A stretch of DNA of 64,000 bases from Pristiophorus japonicus. Taxonomy: Eukaryota. Under the pieces are notes generated by a model. That model saw only the letters and a program-made list of their open reading frames with translations, was not told where the DNA came from and searched no databases. This document shows, piece by piece, positions 23,065 to 64,000 of this stretch. Within the stretch, counting starts at the first letter, position 1. Each line of letters opens with the position of its first letter. The stretch spans positions 12,896,001 through 12,960,000 of the forward strand of contig NC_091977.1 of assembly GCF_044704955.1 (NCBI RefSeq), written 5' to 3'. The translations under genes were made by a program, and so were the position numbers.

Positions 23065-26000
23065 CATAAGAACATAAGAAATTGGAGCAGGAGTAGGCCA
23101 TTCGGCCCCTCGAGCCTGCTCCACCATCCAATAAGTTCATGGCTGATCTTCGACCTCAACTCCACTTTCCTGCACTATCCCCATATCCCCTGATTCCCTT
23201 AATATTCAAAAATCTATCGATAGCTGTCTTGAATATACTCAACGTGTGAGCATCCACAACCCTGGTTCCCCTGTGACTCCTGGTTCTTGACTCCCCAGCC
23301 AGGGGAAACATCCTCTCTGTATCCTCCCTGTCAAGCCCTCTAAGAATCTTGAATCTTTCAATGAGATCACCTCTCATACTTCTAAACTCAAGAGAATATA
23401 GGCCAAGTCTACTCAATCTCATCTCATAGGCCAATCCCCCCATCCCAGGAATCAGTTTGGTGAACCTTCATTACACTCTACGGCAAGTATAGAAACATAG
23501 AAAATAGGTGCAGGAGTAGGCCATTCGGCCCTTCGAGCCTGCACCGCCATTCAACGAGTTCATGGCTGAACATGCAACTTCAGTACCCCATTCCTGCTTT
23601 CTCACCATACCCCTTGATCCCCCCCAGTAGCAAGGACTACATCTAACTCCTTTTTGAATATATTTAGTGAATTGGCCTCAACAACTTCCTGTGGTAGAGA
23701 ATTCCACAGGTTCACCACTCTGAGTGAAGAAGTTTTTCCTCATCTCAGTCCTAAATGGCTTACCCCTTATCCTAAGACTGTGACCCCTGGTTCTGGACTT
23801 CCCCAACATTGGGAACATTCTTCCTGCATCTAACCTGTCTAAACCCGTCAGAATTTTAAACGTTTCTATGCGATCCCCTCTCATTCCTTCCTTTGGTAAG
23901 GAGACAAAAACTACACAATACTCCAGGTGTGGTCTCACCAGGGCCCTATATAAGTGCAGTAAGATGTCTTTACTCTTATACTCAAATCATTTTGTAATAA
24001 AGGCCAACATACCATTTACTTTTCTAATTGCTTGCTGTACCTGCATGTTAACTTTCAGTGATTCGTGTACAAGGACACCCAGGTCCCTCTGAACACCAAC
24101 ATTTCCCAATCTTTCACCATTTAAAAAATGCTCTGCTTTTCTATTTTTCCAACCAAAATGGGTAACTTCACATTTCTCCACATTATATTCCATTTCCCAT
24201 GTTCTTGTCCACTCACTTAGCCTCTCTATATCCCCTTGAAGCCTCTTTGCATCCTCCTTACAATTTACATTCCCAACTAGCTTTCTATCATCAGCAAACT
24301 TGGATATATTACATTTAGTCCCCTCATCCAAATCATTGGTACAGATTGTGAATAGCTGAGGCCCCAGCACTGATCCTTGCAGCAACCCACCAATTACAGC
24401 TTGTCAACCCAAAAATTACCTGTTTATTCCTACTCTCTGTGTTATGTCCATTAACCAATCCTCGATCCATGCTAGTATATTACCCCCAATCCCATGAGCC
24501 CTAATTTTGTTTAATAACATCTTGTGTGGCACCTTATCGAATGCCTTCTGAAAATCCAGATACATTACATCCACTGGTCACCCTTATTTATTCTGCTAGT
24601 TACAACCTCAAAGAACTCTTAACAGATTTGTCAAACGTGATTTCCCTTTCATAAATCCATGTTTACTCTGTACAATCCTATTATTATTTTCTAAGTGCAC
24701 TGTTACCACGTCCTTAATAATAGATTCCAGCATTTTCCCCACAAGTGATGTCAGGCTAACTGGTCTGTATTTCCCCGTTTTCTCTCTCCCTCCTTTCTTA
24801 TATAGTGGGGTTACATTTTCTACCTTCCAATCCGCAGGAACTACTGTAGAATCTATGGAATTTTGGAACATGACAACCAATGCATCCACTATCTCGACAG
24901 CCAACTCTTTTAAAACCCTGGGATGTAGGCCATCAGGTGCGAGGGATTGAACGGCTTTCAATCCCATTAATTTCTTCAGTACTTTTTTTTTACTAATGCT
25001 CATTTATTTCAGTTCCTCATTCTCACTTAACCCTTGGTTCTCCGCTATTTCCAAGGCTACCTCCTTAAGTACTCTGGGATGCAGTCCATCAGGCCCTGGG
25101 GATTTATCGGCCTTCAATCCCATCATTTTCCCCAACACAATTTCCCGACTAATAAGGATTTCCCTCAGTTCCTCCTTCTTACTAGACTCTCTGACTCCTT
25201 TTATATATGGAAGGTTGTTTGTGTCCTCCTTAGTGAATACCGAACCAAAGTACTTGTTTAATTGGTCTGCCATTTCTTTGTTCCCCGTTATGACTTCTCC
25301 TGATTCTGACTGCAGGGGACCTACATTTGTCTTTACTAACCTTTTTCTCTTTACATATCTATAGAAGCTTTTGCAGTCCGTCTTAATGTTCCCTGCAAGC
25401 TTCCTCTCGTACTCTATTTTCCCTGCCCTAATCAAACCCTTTGTCCTCCTCTGCTGAGTTCTAAATTTCTCCCAGTCCCCGGGTTCGCTGCTATTTCTGG
25501 CCAATTTGTATGCCACTTCCTTGCCTTTAATACTATCCCTGATTTCCCTTGATAGCCACAGTTAAGCCACCTTCCCTTTTTTATTTTTACGCCAGACAGG
25601 GATGTACAATTGTTGTAGTTCATCCATGCGGTCTCTAAATGTCTGCCGTTGCCCATCCACTTCAATCCCTTAAGTATCATTCACCAATCTATCCTAGCCA
25701 ATTCACGCCTCATACCTTCAAAGTTACCCTTCTTTAAATTCTAGACCATGGTCTCTGAATTAACTGTTTCATTCTCCATCCTAATGTAGAATTACACCAT
25801 ATTATGATCACTCTTCCCCAAGGGGCCTCGCACAACGAGATTGCTAATTAATTCTCTCTCATTACACAGCACCTAGTCTAAGATGGCCTCCCCTCTAGTT
25901 GGTTCCTCGACATATTGGTCTAGAAAACCATCACTTATGCACTCCAGGAAATCCGCCTCCACCGTATTGCTTCCAGTTTGGTTAGCCCAATCTATATGCA

Positions 26001-26108
26001 TATTAAAGTCACCCATGATAACTGCTGCACCTTTATTGCATGCACCCCTAATTTCCTGTTTGATGCCCTCCCCAACATCACTACTACTGTTTGGAGGTCT
26101 GTACACAA
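23065..26108 (-). mobile_element. Mosaic of older and younger CR1 fragments
   Basis: Two 3' tails (cataagaa type at ~23065, catagaaa type at ~23490); RT and endonuclease peptides; 25040-26108 is near-identical to the young CR1 at 46796-49688. Confidence 0.9.
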
Positions 26109-36146: not shown

Positions 36147-39100
36147 TATGGCAGGGGGATGGGAACCTATGCAGGGAGACAGAGGAAAACAAAATGGAGA
36201 CAGAAGCAAAAGACAGAAAGGAAATGAGTAAAAGTGGAGGACAGAGAAACCCAAGGCAAAAAACAAAAAGGGCCACTTTGCAGCAACATTCTAAAGGGTC
36301 TAAGTGCATTAAAAAGACAAGCCTGAAGGCTCTGTGCCTCAATGTGAGGAGTATTCAGAATAAGGTGGACGAATTAACTGTGCAGATAGCAGTTAACGGA
36401 TACGATGTAATTGGCATCACGGAGACATGGCTCCAGGGTGACCAAGGCTGGGAACTCAACATCCAAGGGTACTCAACATTTAGGAAGTGTAGACAGAAAG
36501 GAAAAGGAAGTGGGGTGGCGTTGCTGGTTAAAGAGGAAAATAATGCAATTGTGAGGAAAGACATTAGCTTGGATGATGTGGAATCGGTATGGGTGGAGTT
36601 ACGGAATACCAAGGGGCAGAAAACGTGAGTGGGAGTTGTGTACAGACCTCCAAACAGTAGGGTGATGTTGGGGAGGGCATCAAACAGGAAATTAGGGGTG
36701 CATGCAATAAAGGTGCAGCAGTTATCATGGGTGACTTTAATATGCATATAGATTGGGCGAACCAAACTGGAAGCAATACGGTGGAGGAGGATTTCCTGGA
36801 GTGCATAAGGGATGGTTTTCGAGACCAATATGTTGAGGAACCAACTAGGGGGGGAGGCCATCGTAGACTGGGTGTTGTGTAATGAGAGAGGATTAATTAG
36901 CAATCTCGTTGTGCGAGGCCCCTTGGGGAAGAGTGGCCATAATATGGTGGAATTCTACAGTAGGATGGAGAATGAAACGGTTAATTCAGAGACCATGGTC
37001 CAGAACTTAAAGAAGGGTAACTTTGAAGGTATGAGGCGGGAATTGGCTAGGATAGATTGACGAATGCTACTTAAGGGGTTGACAGTGGATGGGCAATGGC
37101 AGACATTTAGAGACCGCATGGATGAACTACAACAATTGTACATCCCTGTCTGGCGTAAAAATAAAAAAGGGAAGGTGGCTCAACCGTGGCTATCAAGGGA
37201 AATCAGGGATAGTACTAAAGCCAAGGAAGTGGCATACAAATTGGCCAGAAATAGCAGCGAACCCAGGGACTAGGAGAAATTTAGAACTCAGCAGAGGAGG
37301 ACAAAGGGTTTGATTCGGGCAGGGGAAATAGAGTATGAGAGGAAGCTTGCAGGGAACATTAAGACGGATTGCAAAAGCTTCTATAGATATGTAAAGACAA
37401 ACAGGTTAGTAAAGACAAATGTAGGTCCCCTGCAGTCAGAATCAGGGGAAGTCATAACTGGGAACAAAGAAATGGCAGACCAATTGAACAAGTACTTTGG
37501 TTCGGTATTCACTAAGGAGGACACAAACAACCTTCTGGGTATAAAAGGGGTCAGAGGGTCTAGTGAGAAGGAGGAACTGAGGGAAATCCTTATTAGTCGG
37601 GAAATTATGTTGGGGAAATTGATGGGATTGAAGGCCGATAAATCCCCAGTGCCTGATGGTCTGCATCCCAGAGTACTTAAGGAGGTGGCCTTGGAAATAG
37701 TGAATGCATTGACAGTCATTTTCCAACATTCCATAGACTCTGGATCAGTTCCTATGGAGTAGAGGGTAGCCAATGTAACCCCACTTTTTAAAAAAGGAGG
37801 AAGAGAGAAAACGGAATTATAGACCGGTCAGCCTGACATCAGTAGTGGGTAAAATGATGGAATCAATTATTAAGGATGTCATAGCAGCGCATTTGGAAAG
37901 AGGTGACATGATAGGTCCAAGTCAGCATGGATTTGTGAAAGGGAAATCATGCTTGACAAATCTTCTGGAATTTTTTGAGGATGTTTCCAGTAGAGTGGAC
38001 AAGGGAGAACCAGTTGATGTGGTGTACTTGGACTTTCAGAAGGCTTTCGACAAGGTCCCACACAAGAGATTAATGTGCAAAGTTAAAACACATGGGTTTG
38101 GGGGTAGTGTGCTGACTTGGATTGAGAACTGGTTGGCAGACAGGAAGCAAAGAGCAGGAGTAAATGGGTACTATTCAGAATGGCAGGCAGTGACTAGTGG
38201 GGTACCGCAAGGTTCTGTGCTGGGGCCCCAGCTGTTTACATTGTACATTAATGATTTAGACGAGGGGATTAAATGTAGTATCTCCAAATTTGCGGATGAC
38301 ACTAAATTGGGTGGCAGTGTGAGCTGCGAGGAGGATGCTATGAGGCTGCAGAGTGACTTGGACAGGTTAGGTGAGTGGGCAAATGCATGGCAGATGAAGT
38401 ACAATGTAGATAAATGCGAGGTTATCCACTTTGGTGGTAAAAGCAGAGAGACAGACTATTATCTGAACGGTGACAGATTAGGAAAAGGGGAGGTGTAACA
38501 AGACCTGGGTGTCATGGTACATCAGTCATTGAAGGTTGGCATGCAGGTGCAGCATGTGGTTAAGAAAGCAAATGGCATGTTGGCCTTCATAGCAAGGGGA
38601 TTTGTGTACAGGGGCAGGGAGGTGTTACTTCAGTTGTCCAGGGCCTTGGTGAGGCCACACCTGGAGTATTGTGTAACTTGTGGAAGGACGTTCTTGCTAT
38701 TGAGGGAGTGCAGCGAAGGTTCACCAGACTGATTCCCGGGATGGCGGGACTGACATATCAAGAAAGACTGGATCAACTGGGCTTGTATTCACTGGAGTTC
38801 AGAAGAATGAGAGGGGACCTCATAGAAATGTTTAAAATTCTGACGGTGTTAGACAGGTTGGATGCAAGAAGAATGTTCCCAATGTTGGGGAATTCCAGAA
38901 CCAGGGGTCACAGTCTAAGGATAAGGGGTAAGCCATTTAGGACTTCGATGAGGAGAAACTTCTTCACCCAGAGAGTGGTGAACCTGTGGAATTCTCGACC
39001 ACAGAAAGTTGTTGAGGCCAATTCACTAAATATATTCAAAAAGGAGTTAGATGTAGTCCTTACTACTAGGGGGATTAAGGGGTATGGCGAGAAAGCAGGA

Positions 39101-40199
39101 ATGGGGTACTGAAGTTGCATGTTCAGCCATGAACTCATTGAAAGGGCCGAATGGCCTACTCCTGCACCTATTTTCTATGTTTCTATGTTTCTAGATCAGT
39201 CCAGAATTGTTTGTTTAATTTTGGCGGATCCATGAATTCTTTGTCCTATTGTGGCAGGCTCGTTAATATGTCTCGGGTGGGCTGATCTTCTAAATCTGCT
39301 TCTTGATGGAAATATTAGCTTGGTAATCGCAATATTCTTTGTGCCTGGCTTTTGCATGCAGGCTGGAGTGGGCCTTTTATTTTTATGCATAGGGTGAAAA
39401 TGATTTTCCCGGTTCAGGTTGATGGCTGGCCATCTCTGAGTTAATTGTTGCAATGTTAATGTCTCTTGTGGAGAAGGGTTTTCGAGTATCCATTTTCCAG
39501 ACAATTTACCTTAGTCTCAATGCCCCAGGCAGTTTCAATAATCAAACTGGCTTCTTTAGTTCTCTAGTCCTGCCCACAGACTGAATTTGTCTTGTAATCC
39601 CAAATTTGATTAAAGTTCGTAGTTTCTTCCATGAGTATTTTAGGATTTCAAACTTTCTGGTAGATAGTTCCAAAGTAAATTTCCTTTCCAATGAGTCCAA
39701 ACACGGGGGGTGGCAGTGGGGGGGGGGTGGGGGGGGGGTGAGGGGGGGGGTGCGGTTCCCACAAATTCTGCCCTTCTCTTACAGTTGTGTAAACATCTAC
39801 TCACCTTGACCACCCGAATCATATCGTTGAATTTCTTCCGGCACTGTGTTGGGCTTCTGTCAATCACGGCACTGGCCGACACCTCTGCAGCCACTTCTGC
39901 CCCCAAGGCCCTAAAAACCTGCGGCATTGGCTGTCTCCCAGATGGGGGGAACAGTGCATTTATCCTTCTCTCTGTCCCCACCAATGTCTCCAATGCCAGG
40001 TCATTGAACCAAGTGGCTCATTCAAAAGGCATTGGAGCAACCAATACAGACCTTCCTTCCAGCTCTCATTGAACTTCAGCCATGATGAAAATGACCAGGT
40101 GCTGCCTGAAACGCCATCCCCTTTAAGAACTGGAATGAGCAGGAGGCTGAATATCGCTGATTGAAAATCATCTGAAATTGGGTGCAGCTCTCTGGTAAT

Positions 40200-45125: not shown

Positions 45126-45467
45126 ATTGTTGGCAGAATGTCCATCGAGCTCCAGGGGGTTAAATTGATTCGCGGGGAGAACGGGCGTGGGGATGGCTGT
45201 ACGCGATGAACCCAGGCCCATAAAATCCATGCTGCCTGCTGATTTCCACCATTGCTGTGTGCAGCCAGCGCTACCCGTGCTGTTGATCAGTTGCAGGCAC
45301 CAGGAGGGAGATCAAAATCAGGAATGCACAATGCCATTTAAAGGCAGCCAGCTCTTCTTAAAGGGGATGTGGATTGGTGTGTCTAGAGGTATATCCATGT
45401 TTGCTAACTGTTATGTAATGATGTGTGTATCGTCCCAGTACCTTAAATGTATTGTAAGTACTATGCC

Positions 45468-45676
45468 GAAATAGGAGGTGGGTGGGGTGGTTTGACCCAT
45501 CCACCTCCATGGCACGAACCTGGTATTGCAGTACTCCTAGGAACGGTGCAGTGGCTCTGGACCTTTTGGCTAAGAGCATTGGCGCAGAGTGATCCTTGAT
45601 GTGTGCAAGGTGACCTCTGGCGTTTGTGATCTGACAAAGAATTGGAAAGATTGGCTACGAAAATTAAAAAAAAAAA
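45468..45676 (+). mobile_element. U2 snRNA-derived retroposon with polyA tail
   Basis: 23-bp TSD AAATGTATTGTAAGTACTATGCC (45445-67, 45677-99); absent from the 3' LTR; contains CCTGGTATTGCAGTAC...AGGAACGGTGCA (U2 3' end) and then CCTTTTGGCTAAGA (U2 5' end). Confidence 0.85.
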
Positions 45677-45974
45677 AAATGTATTGTAAGTACTATGCCA
45701 CACCACAGAGGGCGCTGCGGTGGGAAACCCTGGTAGTACCTGTAACAAGGGCTATATAAGGCTGACCACCACACCTGGGAGGCACTCTGGAGCTGAACAA
45801 TAAAGGACGAAGGTCACAGCAGTTAGACTTACACCAGACCGTGTGGAGTCACTGATTTGTGTGCTACATACACCACATTGGCAACAAGGACGGTCCGTGG
45901 GAGCTGGGAAGACTTCATTCCTCCACAGGCTGCAGCTCCAGCTCGGTCGGCGCTGCTCTCTGGGGACCCGGGGC

Positions 45975-46795: not shown

Positions 46796-49688
46796 AACAT
46801 AGAAACATAGAAACATAGAAAATAGGTGCAGGAGCAGGCCATTCAGCCCTTCTAGCCTGCACCGCCATTCAATGAGTTCATGGCTGAACATGAAACTTCA
46901 GTACCCCCTTCCTGCTTTCTCGCCATAACCCTTGATCCCCCTAGTAGTAAGGACTTCATCTAACTCCCTTTTGAATATATTTAGTGAATTGGCCTCAACT
47001 ACTTTCTGTGGTAGAGAATTCCACAGGTTCACCACTCTCTGGGTGAAGAAGTTTCTCCTCATCTCGGTCCTAAATGGCTTACCCCTTATCCTCAGACTGT
47101 GACCCCTGGTTCTGGACTTCCCCAACATTGGGAACATTCTTTCTGCATCTAACCTGTCTAAACCCGTCAGAATTTTAAACGTTTCTATGAGGTCCCCTCT
47201 CATTCTTCTGAACTCCAGTGAATACAAGCCCAGTTGATCCAATCTTTCTTGATAGGTCAGTCCCGCCATCCCGGGAATCAGTCTGGTGAACCTTCGCTGC
47301 ACTCCCTCAATAGCAAGAATGTCCTTCCTCAAGTTAGGAGACCAAAACTGTACACAATACTCCAGGTGTGGCCTCACCAAGGCCCTGTACAACTGTAGCA
47401 ACACCTCCCTGCCCCTGTATTCAAATCCCCTCGCTATGAAGGCCAACATGCCATTTGCTTTCTTAACCGCCTGCTGTACCTGCATGCTAACCTTCAATGA
47501 CTGATGTACCATGACACCCAGGTCTCGTTGCACCTTCCCTTTTCCTAATCTGTCACCATTCAGATAATAGTCTGTCTCTCTGTTTTTACCACCAAAGTGG
47601 ATAACCTCACATTTATCCACATTATACTTCATCTGCCATGCATTTGCCCACTCACCTAACCTATCCAAGTCGCTCTGCAGCCTCACAGCATCCTCCTCGC
47701 AGCTCACACTGCCACCCAACTTAGTGTCATCCGCAAATTTGGAGATACTGCATTTAATCCCCTCGTCTAAATCATTAATGTACAATGTAAACAACTGGGG
47801 CCCCAGCACAGAACCTTGCGGCACTCCACTAGTCACTGCCTGCCATTCTGAAAAGTACCCGTTTACTCCTACTCTTTGCTTCCTGTCTGACAACCAGTTC
47901 TCAATCCACGTCAGCACACTACCCCCAATCCCATGTGCTTTAACTTTGCACATTAATCTCTTGTGTGGGACCTTGTCGAAAGCCTTCTGAAAGTCCAAAT
48001 ATACCACATCAACTGGTTCTCCTTTGTCCACTTTACTGGAAACATCCTCAAAAAATTCCAGAAGATTTGTCAAGCATGATTTCCCTTTCACAAATCCATG
48101 CTGACTTGGACCTATCATGTCACCATTTTCCAGATGCACTGCTATGACATCCTTAATAATTGATTCCATCATTTTACCCACTACTGAGGTCAGGCTGACC
48201 GGTCTATAATTCCCTGTTTTCTCTCTCCCTCCTTTTTTAAAAAGTGGGGTTACATTGGCTACCCTCCACTCCATAGGAACTGATCCAGAGTCAATGGAAT
48301 GTTGGAAAATGACTGTCAATGCATCCGCTATTTCCAAGGCCACCTCCTTAAGTACTCTAGGATGCAGTCCATCAGGCCCTGGGGATTTATCGGCCTTCAA
48401 TCCCATCAATTTCCCCAACACAATTTCCCGACTAATAAAGATTTCCCTCAGTTCCCCCTCCTTACTAGACCCTCTGACCCCTTTTATATCCGGAAGGTTG
48501 TTTGTATCCTCCTTAGTGAATACCGAACCAAAGTACTTGTTCAATTGGTCTGCCATTTCTTTGTTCCCCGTTATGACTTCCCCTGATTCTGACTGCAGGG
48601 GACCTACGTTTGTCTTCACCAACCTTTTTCTCTTTACATACCTATAGAAACTTTTGCAATCCGCCTTAATGTTCCCTGCAAGCTTCTTCTCGTACTCCAT
48701 TTTCCCTGCCCTAATCAAACCCTTTGTCCTCCTCTGCTGAGTTCTAAATTTCTCCCAGTCCCCAGGTTCGCTGCTATTTCTGGCCAATTTGTATGCCACT
48801 TCCTTGGCTTTAATACTATCCCTGATTTCCCTTGATAGCCACGGTTGAGCCACCTTCCCTTTTTTATTTTTACGCCAGACAGGAATGTACAATTGTTGTA
48901 ATTCATCCATGCGGTCTCTAAATGTCTGCCATTGCCCATCCACAGTCAACCCCCTAAGTATCATTCGCCAATCTATCCTAGCCAATTCACGCCTCATACC
49001 TTCAAAGTTACCCTTCTTTAAGTTCTGGACCATGGTCTCTGAAATTACTGTTTCATTCTCCATCCTAATGCAGAATTCCACCATATTATGGTCACTCTTC
49101 CCCAAGGGGCCTCGCACAATGAGATTGCTAATTAATCCTCTCTCATTACACAACACCCAGTCTAAGATGGCCTCCCCCCTAGTTGGTTCCTCAACATATT
49201 GGTCTAGAAAACCATCCCTTATGCACTCCAGGAAATCCTCCTCCACCGTATTGCTTCCAGTTTGGCTAGCCCAATCTATGTGCATATTAAAGTCACCCAT
49301 TATAACTGCTACACCTTTATTGCATGCACCCCTAATTTCCTGTTTGATGCCCTCCCCAACATCCCTATTACTGTTTGGAGGTCTGTACACAACTCCTACT
49401 AACGTTTTTTGCCCTTTGGTGTTCTGAAGCTCTACCCATATAGATTCCACATCATCCAAGCTAATGTCTTTCCTAACTATTGCATTAATCTCCTCTTTAA
49501 CCAGCAATGCTACCCCACCTCCTTTTCCTTTTATTCTATCCTTCCTGAATGTTGAATACCCCTGGATGTTGAGTTCCCAGCCCTGATCATCCTGGAGCCA
49601 CGTCTCCGTAATCCCAATCACATCATATTTGTTAACATCTATTTGCACAATTAATTCATCCACCTTATTGCGGATACTCCTTGCATTA
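46796..49688 (-). mobile_element. Young 5'-truncated CR1 insertion
   Basis: (tttctatg)n tail; flanked by AGAAGA (46790-95, 49689-94); removal restores the gag-protease frame ELVEDEVLGLHTC. Confidence 0.95.
46898..49663 (-). CDS. CR1 ORF2, APE endonuclease plus reverse transcriptase (uninterrupted, N-terminus truncated)
   Basis: 921 codons without a stop: GITETW, YRPP, GDFN, SDH, NYRPVSL, DFQKAFD, GVPQGSVLGP, FADD. Confidence 0.95.
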   Translation of the reverse strand: MDELIVQIDVNKYDVIGITETWLQDDQGWELNIQGYSTFRKDRIKGKGGGVALLVKEEINAIVRKDISLDDVESIWVELQNTKGQKTLVGVVYRPPNSNRDVGEGIKQEIRGACNKGVAVIMGDFNMHIDWASQTGSNTVEEDFLECIRDGFLDQYVEEPTRGEAILDWVLCNERGLISNLIVRGPLGKSDHNMVEFCIRMENETVISETMVQNLKKGNFEGMRRELARIDWRMILRGLTVDGQWQTFRDRMDELQQLYIPVWRKNKKGKVAQPWLSREIRDSIKAKEVAYKLARNSSEPGDWEKFRTQQRRTKGLIRAGKMEYEKKLAGNIKADCKSFYRYVKRKRLVKTNVGPLQSESGEVITGNKEMADQLNKYFGSVFTKEDTNNLPDIKGVRGSSKEGELREIFISREIVLGKLMGLKADKSPGPDGLHPRVLKEVALEIADALTVIFQHSIDSGSVPMEWRVANVTPLFKKGGREKTGNYRPVSLTSVVGKMMESIIKDVIAVHLENGDMIGPSQHGFVKGKSCLTNLLEFFEDVSSKVDKGEPVDVVYLDFQKAFDKVPHKRLMCKVKAHGIGGSVLTWIENWLSDRKQRVGVNGYFSEWQAVTSGVPQGSVLGPQLFTLYINDLDEGIKCSISKFADDTKLGGSVSCEEDAVRLQSDLDRLGEWANAWQMKYNVDKCEVIHFGGKNRETDYYLNGDRLGKGKVQRDLGVMVHQSLKVSMQVQQAVKKANGMLAFIARGFEYRGREVLLQLYRALVRPHLEYCVQFWSPNLRKDILAIEGVQRRFTRLIPGMAGLTYQERLDQLGLYSLEFRRMRGDLIETFKILTGLDRLDAERMFPMLGKSRTRGHSLRIRGKPFRTEMRRNFFTQRVVNLWNSLPQKVVEANSLNIFKRELDEVLTTRGIKGYGEKAGRGY

Positions 49689-50129
49689 AGAAGATGAGGT
49701 GTTGGGACTGCACACGTGTAACGACGATTTGCCCCCAGTGATAAGTGAAGTAAAAATCAACGGAGTCCCAGTGAGTATGGAAGTGGACACGGGCTCGGGT
49801 CCGTCGTTGATGAGTCGGAGAACTTTTGATAAACTGTGGATTAACCCAGCTGCATGACCCAAGCTGGTCCCGGTCACGGCGAAGCTGCGAACTAATACCT
49901 GTTCTCGGCAGAGCGGAGGTGCAGGTATCCCACGGGGACGAGGTGCACGGTTTATCTTTGTGGGTCGTTGCAGGCGATGGGCCGACACTCCTCGGCCGGA
50001 GGTGGATGGGGACGGTCTGTGGGAGCTGGGAAGACTTCATCCCTCCACAGGCTGCTGCTCCCCGGGGTGCTGCCGTGCCCCTGGTCCCCAGAGAGCAGCG
50101 CCGACCGAGCTGGAGCTGCAGCCTCAATC

Positions 50130-50630
50130 CACCCACAGGCAAGTCCCAGGCCCGGACCTCACACAGAGACCCTGCAACCTTAATCCCCACAGGCAAGTCC
50201 CAGCCCCGGACCTCACACAGAGACCCTGCAGCCCCAGCCCCCACAGGCAAGTCCCAGGCCCGGACCTCACACAGAGACCCTGCAGCCCCAGCCCCCACAG
50301 GCAAGTCCCAGGCCCGGACCTCACACCGAGACCCTGCAGCCTCAGCCCCCACAGGCAAGTCCCAGGCCCAGACCTCACACAGAGATCCTGCAGCCTTAAT
50401 CCCCACAGGCAAGTCCCAGCCCCGGACCTCACACAGAGACCCTGCAGCCCCAGCCCCCACAGGCAAGCCCCAGGCCCGGATCTCACACAGAGACCCTGCA
50501 GCCCCAGCCCCCACAGGCAAGCCCCAGGCCCGGATCTCACACAGAGACCCTGCAGCCCCAGCCCCCACAGGCGAGCCCCAGGCCTGGATCTCACACAGAG
50601 ACCCTGCAGTCCCAGCCCCCACAGGCAAGC
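50130..50630. repeat. 54-bp VNTR (~9 copies) inside the Gypsy element
   Basis: Unit cccacaggcaagtcccaggcccggacctcacacagagaccctgcagccccagcc. Confidence 0.95.
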
Positions 50631-51669
50631 AGCCCTGCACAGAGGGGCCCAAGGGGGGGTGGGGGTGAGCCGGCGGGGCGCTGCGGGCGGGGTGCTGAGG
50701 GATCCAGGGGCCGGCGGTTCGGAAGGGCCCCGCAGAGGAAGAGGCCTTTGGGCGGGCCCCGAGGAGCTGGTAGCGTCGGTCGGCGGCCATGGCAGCCACA
50801 GGGGAGGCGGCTACAGTGGCCGCCGGAGAAGCGACGATGACGGCCGCAGGGGAGGCGGCAAGTCAGGTGGCAGCGGAGGGGAGCGGAGGCTGCGACGGCG
50901 GAGGGCATTCGGAGCGGCGGAGAAGAAGATGGCGGCGGAATCGTGTCGGAGCTGCAGAGCATCAAAGATGGCGGCGCCCAAGGAGAAGCTTCGTGGAATC
51001 CTCCTGCATCAAAGATGGTGCCTTAAAGAGGAAATGCACCCGGGAGTCTTAAAAGGGCCTTACAAAGAGGTGGTCCCCACAAAGGACTTCTGTTTGGCAG
51101 AGCGAGTCCAAAATGAGCTATGTTAATGTGAGATAGTGAATTTATAATAAGAATTACTTTTTTTATGCTGAATGGCCACTGTATTTGTGTAAAATAATGG
51201 ATGGAGTACAATTAATGATAACGGCTAACAAGGAAATCAAGGTTCCGCTACCAGTCAATAACCAGTTAATGTACCAGATAAAATGTACCATACTAATACA
51301 CTGTCTATGCCCACCTGCCTTCTGTTGGACAAGTGTGATGTTATGTATTGATGTATGTATCGTTGTCCTGCATCCAGGTGGGGGGGGGGGGGGAAGGTGA
51401 TGTTATGTAATGATGTGTGTATCGTCCCAGTACCTTAAATGTATTGTAAGCACTATGCCACACCACAGAGGGCGCTGTGGTGGGAAACCCTGGTAGTACC
51501 TGTAACAAGGGCTATATAAGGCTGACCACCACACCTGGGAGGCACTCTGGAGCTGAACAATAAAGGACGAAGGTCACAGCAGTTAGACTTACACCAGACC
51601 GTGTGGAGTCAGTGATTTGTGTGCTACATACACCACAGCTGACAATACAAAGGTGGGACATTAAGCTTT

Positions 51670-56900: not shown

Positions 56901-57631
56901 GGCAATGTCGATTCTTGTTGGGTAAGGGTATTGAGGGATATGGAGTAAAGGTGGGGAAATGGAGTTGAGGTACACATAAACCATGATCTGATTGAATGAC
57001 GGAGCAGGCTCGGGGGCTGAATGGCCTCCTCCTGTTCTTATGTTTCCACTGCTGCCAAGTTCTGAGGTTACGTTGTGAATGTTTAAAAATGTATAGAGAC
57101 ATTGAAGTTGAGAATGTGGGAATTGTATAGGGACAGTATAAGCTAACAATGAATTCATGGAGGAATAGCCATGACATCTCAGACTCGAGACTGCAAAATG
57201 TTACAACACTAACACATATTGAAACAAAACCCACAGCTTGCAGAAAAACCTCAAGGTCTTATTAAATCATGTTATTAACCTGAAACATTAACAGAAGGTC
57301 TTTGTTTAAAATCAGACCATACTTAGGTCGGCTTATGAGTGGACAAAGGGAAAGAGGGATCAAAAGGGATAGGCTGGACTAGGATGTCACTCTAGCCCTA
57401 TCTTGTTATCTTTTGCCGAAAATGTATAACCGTCGTGCCTTTACAATGTAACGTCACTTTTTCCGTAGGAAGTGGGTGCGTTCTATCAGAGTGCATTCCT
57501 TCTGTCTGATAAGGTCCCCGATCGGGATTTGCTTTTTAAATAAAAGCTTGCTTTGTTTAAAGCACAAACGGTATTCGTTTCAGTAATTTTGCTGAACCAG
57601 ATTGAGATAAAAGAATCCAGAAATCAACATT

Positions 57632-63785: not shown

Positions 63786-64000
63786 TCCTAAGTGGTATCA
63801 TGGAATGATAAAAGGGGGGAATGTGAATGTTTAAAAATGTATAGAGACATTGAAGTTGAGAATGTGGGAATTGTATAGGGACAGTATAAGCTAACAAAGA
63901 ATTCATGGAGGAATAGCCATGACATCTCAGACTCGAGACTGCAAAATGTTACAACACTAACACATATTGAAACAAAACCCACAGCTTGCAGAGAAACCTC

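Follow-up and report, generated by a model that had tools for sequence, protein, structure and literature searches.

Short retroposons with a small nuclear RNA head, SINEU-1, -2 and -3, are described from crocodilians and were found in no other group (Kojima 2015, PMC4494074). In that paper their sources are proposed to lie in Mariner-N4 and to draw on neighbouring promoters, some crocodilian Tx1 families are reported to prefer LTR elements, and the transcription of SINEU is left open, snRNA promoters being upstream of the RNA and lost on retroposition. The U2 gene itself is a target of Keno, which uses TCTGTTCTTATCAGTTTAAT (3′ side; PMC6136364) and encodes an AP endonuclease, and of Utopia, which encodes a restriction-like endonuclease and has loosened specificity in crocodilians (PMC4640811). 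R2, an autonomous element of 28S rRNA genes, sits at a set position within tandemly repeated host RNA genes, relies on transcription of those genes and employs ribozyme self-excision (PMC4494074, PMC5786205). In the openly accessible literature, no report was found of an snRNA-headed SINE in cartilaginous fishes or of a SINE inside U2 genes, and no such element turned up when PMC5499810 (on shark SINEs), PMC7245038, PMC5786205 and PMC13174262 were searched by term.

The window analysed here is a 64,000-nt stretch of the genome of the shark Pristiophorus japonicus (NC_091977.1, positions 12,896,001 to 12,960,000), and it contains an LTR retroelement whose LTRs, when aligned, differ at 3 of 237 positions and by a single 209-bp insert present only in the 5′ LTR (Table 1). 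The insert is flanked by a perfect 23-nt duplication, AAATGTATTGTAAGTACTATGCC, with TT just before it, and holds a U2 3′-half, the CCTTTTGGCTAAGA motif, an 81-nt tail and an A-tract that includes ATTAAA at 45663-45668. The LTR alignment thus confirms the initial annotation of this DNA in its account of an insertion into one of two near-identical LTRs, with a 23-bp target-site duplication (TSD) and poly(A). Its U2 3′ half and 5′ motif are likewise present, the remaining tail measuring 81 nt and not the ~85 nt claimed. Four reading frames of the LTR element interior gave no match in Pfam, so that its superfamily assignment rests on the anatomy of the LTRs, primer-binding site and polypurine tract, and the element may be non-autonomous.

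Several other repeats were observed in the window. The LTR element interior carries a 54-bp tandem repeat (50010-50737), ahead of which parts of the element's 5′ interior recur as short copies in direct and inverted orientation, and a LINE with a 951-aa endonuclease-RT frame is nested within the element (46807-49756, minus strand), with 94-96% identical copies at about 23489-26081 and 36338-39145. A pair of 99% identical repeats, 6.7 kb apart (57074-57252 and 63822-64000), probably represents the LTRs of another young element.

Table 1. Positions in the window of the insert, its component parts and the LTRs of the receiving element
Feature	Positions	Strand	Remarks
5′ LTR of the receiving LTR retroelement	45409..45877	+	TG...CA, then TGG-type primer-binding site; 98.5% identical to the 3′ LTR without the insert
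Target-site duplication, 5′ copy, 23 nt	45445..45467	+	
5′-truncated U2/U1-derived SINE of subfamily A (short form), from family nt 114 to the 3′ end	45468..45676	+	
U2 3′-half-derived part, about U2 nt 106-184	45468..45549	+	
Remodelled 13-bp GC hairpin replacing stem-loop III	45474-45508	+	
Stem-loop-IV-like part with AUUGCAGU loop	45512-45549	+	
Second U2 head, internal, left over from an older head (stem-loop I, U2 nt 7-29)	45556..45578	+	Locus L007: 21/23 identical, E 4e-6 against host U2; contains the CCTTTTGGCTAAGA motif
Family tail, 81 nt	45579..45659	+	Sister families B and B′ have related, shorter tails; no relation to the 3′ end of the Keno-type LINE
A-rich tail	45660..45676	+	
Target-site duplication, 3′ copy	45677..45699	+	
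3′ LTR, empty site	51401..51637	+	G-rich polypurine tract ahead

The insert belongs to a young family of snRNA-derived retroposons without coding capacity, of which it is a 5′-truncated member. A search of the 5.9-Gb genome with the insert returned 1,298 candidates, and the 40 that were scored are all 94-100% identical over nearly its whole length, which disposes of the possibility that it is single-copy. An exact 21-nt tail pattern gave 5,170 matches genome-wide (2,551 + 2,619; control 0), a lower bound on copy number. Comparison of flanks shows that the family extends 113 nt further 5′ than the window copy and stops at U2 nt 1. Aligned by BLAST to the host's own U2 and U1 genes, the full unit comprises U2 nt 1-35 (94%), U1 nt 3-52 (84%), U2 nt 97-184 (76%), U2 nt 7-29 (91%), the 81-nt tail and the A-tract, and the U1 piece (E 1e-11) includes a second copy of U1 nt 28-47 and carries the host's GGGGAGTAACC...GGTTCTCCC variant. 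There are two length forms, one of 305 bp and one of 341 bp with a doubled hairpin; the window copy is a short form and is 97.3% identical to its nearest relatives over the 3′ part. The tail-then-head order of U2 sequence that had been noted is seen in the insert as an artefact of truncation and is not the architecture of the family, because the first 113 nt (U2 head and U1 piece) have been lost and an older second U2 head lies inside. The expected match to the U2 covariance model likewise appears in full copies, which score 52-74 bits with Rfam U2 at a cut-off of 46 (6/6 loci in one set, and also L064, L302 and L250), whereas the insert alone falls below it (17.3 bits, E 0.78). With Rfam U1, full copies reach only 19-23 bits (cut-off 69.5), and the U1 origin rests on the BLAST match to host U1.

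Common junctions, and changes specific to subfamilies, mark the family as a single transposing unit and not a collection of separate retrocopies. The 113-nt mosaic head is identical throughout in 34 of 40 scored matches, and a search with 84 nt of the tail gave 40 scored matches that are all identical over the tail. L1 template switching onto snRNAs is known (PMC4494074) and probably made the ancestors of the family, but the common junctions and near-uniform heads and tails refute an origin of the copies as independent chimeric U2/U1 retrocopies, to which we assign negligible probability. In a search with the head, all 30 of 30 loci begin at U2 nt 1; their flanks are unrelated, and in many a TSD lies directly against nt 1. 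Among 28 copies taken in chromosome order 15 begin within nt 1-15 and 9 at nt 101-140. A TSD core of at least 8 nt (median 14) was recognised in 62 of 137 distinct copies. None of the 137 runs on into a LINE, all 30 loci examined in a tail search for a partner LINE are SINE copies, and no U2 upstream sequence was found in 86 near-full-length copies of subfamilies A or C (best local score 22). The second option of the initial annotation, that the insert is the 3′ end of a LINE with a U2-mimicking UTR, has in its favour only the truncated look of the window copy, and it is refuted, with next to no chance of being correct, by the confinement of full copies to 305-341 bp within TSDs, by their stop at U2 +1 against the TSD and by a tail unlike the 3′ end of the Keno-type LINE described below.

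By structure the family is SINEU-like: it has a U1/U2 head, is shorter than 500 bp and non-coding, and ends in poly(A), with a TSD or a target deletion at the insertion. As in the SINEU described in PMC4494074, U1 and U2 heads are stacked, the U1 piece is partially duplicated and oligo-T lies inside the unit, tandem insertions occur, a Tx1-type partner is suggested by common targets, and there is no LINE with the same tail. The original view of the insert as the truncated 3′ end of a recently active, SINEU-like snRNA-derived SINE with Tx1-type insertion is supported. Pol III SINEs, which have tRNA, 7SL or 5S heads with an internal promoter and lack internal T-runs, are a different kind: here Rfam recognises only U2/U1, and runs of four and five T lie at nt 15-18 and about nt 108-112, respectively. 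The family differs from SINEU in its shark lineage, in its targets (U2 nt 38 and a site in Gypsy pol, not Mariner-N4_AMi) and in having copies in U2 genes behind the upstream flank, which PMC4494074 did not report. The GGGGAGTAACC...GGTTCTCCC form of host U1 also differs from the crocodilian U1-like string printed there, and the presence of this host variant in the U1 piece points, at the level of sequence, to an origin independent of crocodilian SINEU. The likeness to SINEU is one of structure, and the target and host features of the named SINEU-1, -2 and -3 are not those found here.

The RNAs of the family are predicted to fold more stably than all 100 shuffled sequences (z -3.9 and -5.7). 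U2 stem-loop I and a stem-loop-IV-like part are kept, the latter answering the proposed check on stem-loop IV, and a GC hairpin of 13 bp has taken the place of stem-loop III. In the predicted fold nt 30-107 form a long U1-derived stem, within which the U2 branch-point pairing stretch of subfamilies A and C is paired as well as mutated. A functional U2 gene is marked by its branch-point pairing sequence, its Sm site and its 3′ end signal. Here GTAGTA at U2 nt 33-38 is replaced in A and C, the Sm site is altered in A, and an A-tract stands where a functional gene would have its 3′ box. A stand-alone U2/U1 chimera snRNA gene with its own promoter and 3′ end signal, missing from the assembly and with an RNA retroposed in the manner of other small RNAs, would fit the +1 start, the strong fold and the retention of stem-loops I and IV, but as the source it is very unlikely given the loss of the branch-point pairing sequence, the existence of several subfamilies and tandem insertions, and the structure of the copies found within U2 genes, which end in an A-tract, with U2 resuming at nt 38, and are thus insertions. 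The copies that start at nt 101-140 adjoin the 3′ foot of the predicted stem, where reverse transcription would be expected to stall.

We consider it probable that the SINE has its sources at the Keno site within U2 genes, that the U2 promoter drives their transcription and that a Tx1 LINE of Keno type supplies the proteins that copy them. Host U2 genes fall into two sets, one of tandemly arrayed units of about 765 bp with a type-A flank and the other with a type-B flank. Among 270 type-A upstream flanks, 238 lead to U2, 17 to subfamily C, 13 seamlessly to a LINE and 2 to a LINE with a duplication, and of 21 type-B flanks 20 lead to U2 and one to subfamily C. All 18 embedded C copies have an A-tract of 26-116 nt followed by U2 from nt 38 onward; the U2 flanks upstream of embedded C copies and LINEs are unchanged, and there is no duplication at the seamless junctions. 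At these junctions a head variant of the element takes the place of host U2 at about nt 29-38, which shows that the head arrived with the element and that host nucleotides were lost. Fifteen of the type-A embedded C copies are identical and the other two share one variant; the 17, some of them on redundant scaffolds, may all go back to a single insertion multiplied as the array turned over, and only two insertions behind U2 flanks (one type-A, one type-B) are certain to be independent. A predicted PSE-like motif aligns with that of U1 in the type-B flank and is not visible in the type-A flank. Type-B U2 genes were also observed in 18-21-kb repeated units (L117, L119, L122, L124, L128 and C9 repeats) with a Keno 3′ remnant downstream and a U2 that lacks its head (nt 38-191).

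The LINE in the U2 array is 5.7 kb long and ends directly before U2 nt 38, at the same base as the embedded C copies. Its ORF1 (581 aa) contains ZCCHC3-type RNA-binding domains and a zinc knuckle, and its ORF2 (1,147 aa), which is complete in 10 of the 13 C19 array stretches, contains AP endonuclease and RT domains. Its relatives include the zebrafish 'transposon TX1 149 kDa protein' and the fish proteins BAC82621.1 and BAD04856.1, which bear no family name, and pieces of ORF2 occur in Heterodontus and Scyliorhinus proteins. Assignment to Tx1/Keno is based on domains, insertion site and best named relatives: the LINE lies directly before U2 TCTGTTCTTATCAGTTTAAT, combines an AP-type endonuclease with RT, has a separate ORF1 and is related to Tx1. 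Utopia uses the same U2 site, with a restriction-like endonuclease in place of the AP endonuclease found here (PMC4640811). The LINE begins with its own U2 nt 1-44-like head with two changes, and in two copies a 16-nt duplication and a short unrelated spacer precede the head. Intact copies were recorded at L125:712-6004 (minus strand), L113/L114 and L231-L240, and in tandem with U2 units on C19 (11 seamless copies). Keno-like LINE 3′ parts (91-93%) also lie about 500 bp upstream of U1 genes in paired inverted units on unplaced scaffolds (L076, L078, L300, L301). The SINE is like Keno in its site before TCTGTTCTTATCAGTTTAAT, at which a LINE with an AP-type endonuclease resides, and unlike Keno in being non-coding and mostly dispersed, with only a U2-like head in common with the LINE; SINE tails have no similarity to the LINE 3′ end. 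What associates SINE and LINE is thus a common site at U2 nt 38 and tandem neighbours (subfamily A copies with Keno 3′ ends at L014, L047, L161 and L298), not a common tail, and the SINEs are mostly off-target.

The unlike tails and the off-target majority favour another possibility, namely that the copies in U2 genes are a sink, that the true sources are dispersed and use neighbouring promoters (for example in Gypsy), and that another Tx1 or L1-type LINE does most of the copying, along the lines of Kojima's proposal for crocodilian SINEU in Mariner-N4. Some 99% of copies lie off-target, with a weak consensus, and no subfamily-A master was found embedded: the A head behind the type-A flank has 0 matches genome-wide, and no A copy lies behind the 21 type-B flanks or in the array stretches examined. 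Embedded sources of A have likely been lost from the arrays or are missing from the assembly. Against a sink stand the sharp start of full copies at U2 +1 with unrelated flanks and no common 5′ extension, the two independent seamless insertions behind U2 flanks, and the closeness of dispersed C copies to embedded ones. The first 30 dispersed C copies in chromosome order are 98-100% identical to an embedded copy (median 99.4%), one over all 334 nt, and 26 of the 30 start at U2 +1 to +12, none upstream of +1. Subfamily C has 212 exact tail matches (108 + 104; control 0) and shares its 3′ body with the window copy, the head and tail end being variant. On this balance we judge the sink explanation improbable.

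The targets of dispersed copies bear on the same question. Copies of subfamily A stand 5-35 nt ahead of U2 nt 38-52 in 33 cases (control 0); the A-tract abuts nt 38 in 30 of these, the other 3 being tandem insertions ahead of a truncated copy; all 33 are in family-B SINEs or U2 fragments and none is behind a U2 flank. Six of them, on C8, share one flank and are probably duplicates. The Keno-site share of subfamily A is therefore about 30/5,170 (0.6%). Among copies outside tandems, 53 have a clear TSD; the triplet just ahead of their first non-A base is mostly C/G, A, A, and position -3 is T in 6 of them, an off-target consensus (about C/G-A-A before T) that resembles the Keno site only weakly. 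The TT/AAA target that had been proposed is thus true of the window copy and not of the family, for which these copies rule out an L1-type TT/AAAA target; ATTAAA, present in the window copy, is similarly ruled out as a conserved signal, the A/T start of the tail varying among AATTAAA, AATAAA, AATTTAAA and plain A. A fixed antisense site in Gypsy pol was used at 11 loci, including 7 of 30 C copies, and SINE copies also use other recurrent sites in repeats, both in keeping with a sink. Because the off-target consensus is weak, only 0.6% of A copies are on-target and 7/30 C copies share the Gypsy pol site, a second Tx1 partner is conceivable, whose enzyme may do much of the mobilisation; use of the Gypsy site is reminiscent of the preference of crocodilian Tx1 families for LTR elements (PMC4494074). 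The Gypsy pol hot-spot insertions (L053, L061, L062, L025, L304, L308, L311, L312, L318, L319, L329 and L173) lie in different Gypsy-type copies, 79-92% identical. At L165 a 5′-truncated A copy is followed by family B from nt 38, with one TSD around both and no B 5′ piece ahead, possibly a single insertion from a read-through dimer RNA. At L164 U2 nt 13-53 is repeated five times in tandem (41-nt units), and two SINE copies follow at the Keno site.

Family B, of about 260 bp, consists of nearly whole U2, a second U2 head and a shorter tail related to that of A, and has 758 candidates, including L130:1334-1595 and loci at L092, L117 and L119. Copies of it also occur ahead of U2 nt 38. The older form B′ has kept the type-A U2 3′ end, and its inner head extends to U2 nt 35. 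Family B retains an intact Keno site and receives insertions, whereas the site is changed in A, C and the LINE. The outer and the inner U2 head of the SINEs both stop at nt 35, which is two bases short of the Keno site, and are therefore likely captured 5′ ends of the target gene.

Taken with the preferred reading of U2-gene sources and a Keno-type LINE, these features suggest a sequence of steps. The U2 promoter would fire at +1 of an embedded source and yield an RNA of head, body, tail and A-tract, on which the LINE enzyme would prime. At a U2 target the copied head would anneal to the 5′ end of host U2 and delete nt 29-37, recreating a promoter-linked source. R2 is known for homology-guided 5′ joining. 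Most insertions would fall off-target and leave a promoter-less copy with a TSD, such as that in the window, whose truncation at nt 114 would follow from frequent stalling at nt 107-125, the foot of the long U1-derived stem. Addition of whole U2 and of U1 would fit template jumping, after the proposal of Kojima. Like R2, the SINE would then live at one set position of a tandemly repeated host RNA gene and rely on transcription of that gene, which for the SINE is a proposal; unlike R2, it keeps the 5′ end of the host RNA as its own head. We lean somewhat towards a still broader reading, in which a promoter-less SINE renews itself by homing to the Keno site of U2, seamless joining to the promoter, immunity of mutated heads to re-insertion and turnover of sources with the array, its heads being captured from the target and such elements arising again and again in the presence of Keno-like LINEs, with separate origins in sharks and in crocodilians.

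The findings extend snRNA-headed SINEs beyond crocodilians and carry a warning for annotation, as thousands of copies pass the Rfam U2 cut-off and are liable to be mislabelled as U2 genes; family B, which scores 146 bits, would be annotated as one. Sources in U2 genes would give a reason for the repeated addition of U2 heads. The near-identical, source-like copies behind U2 flanks at the Keno site offer a concrete and testable answer to the question of how SINEU-like elements are transcribed.
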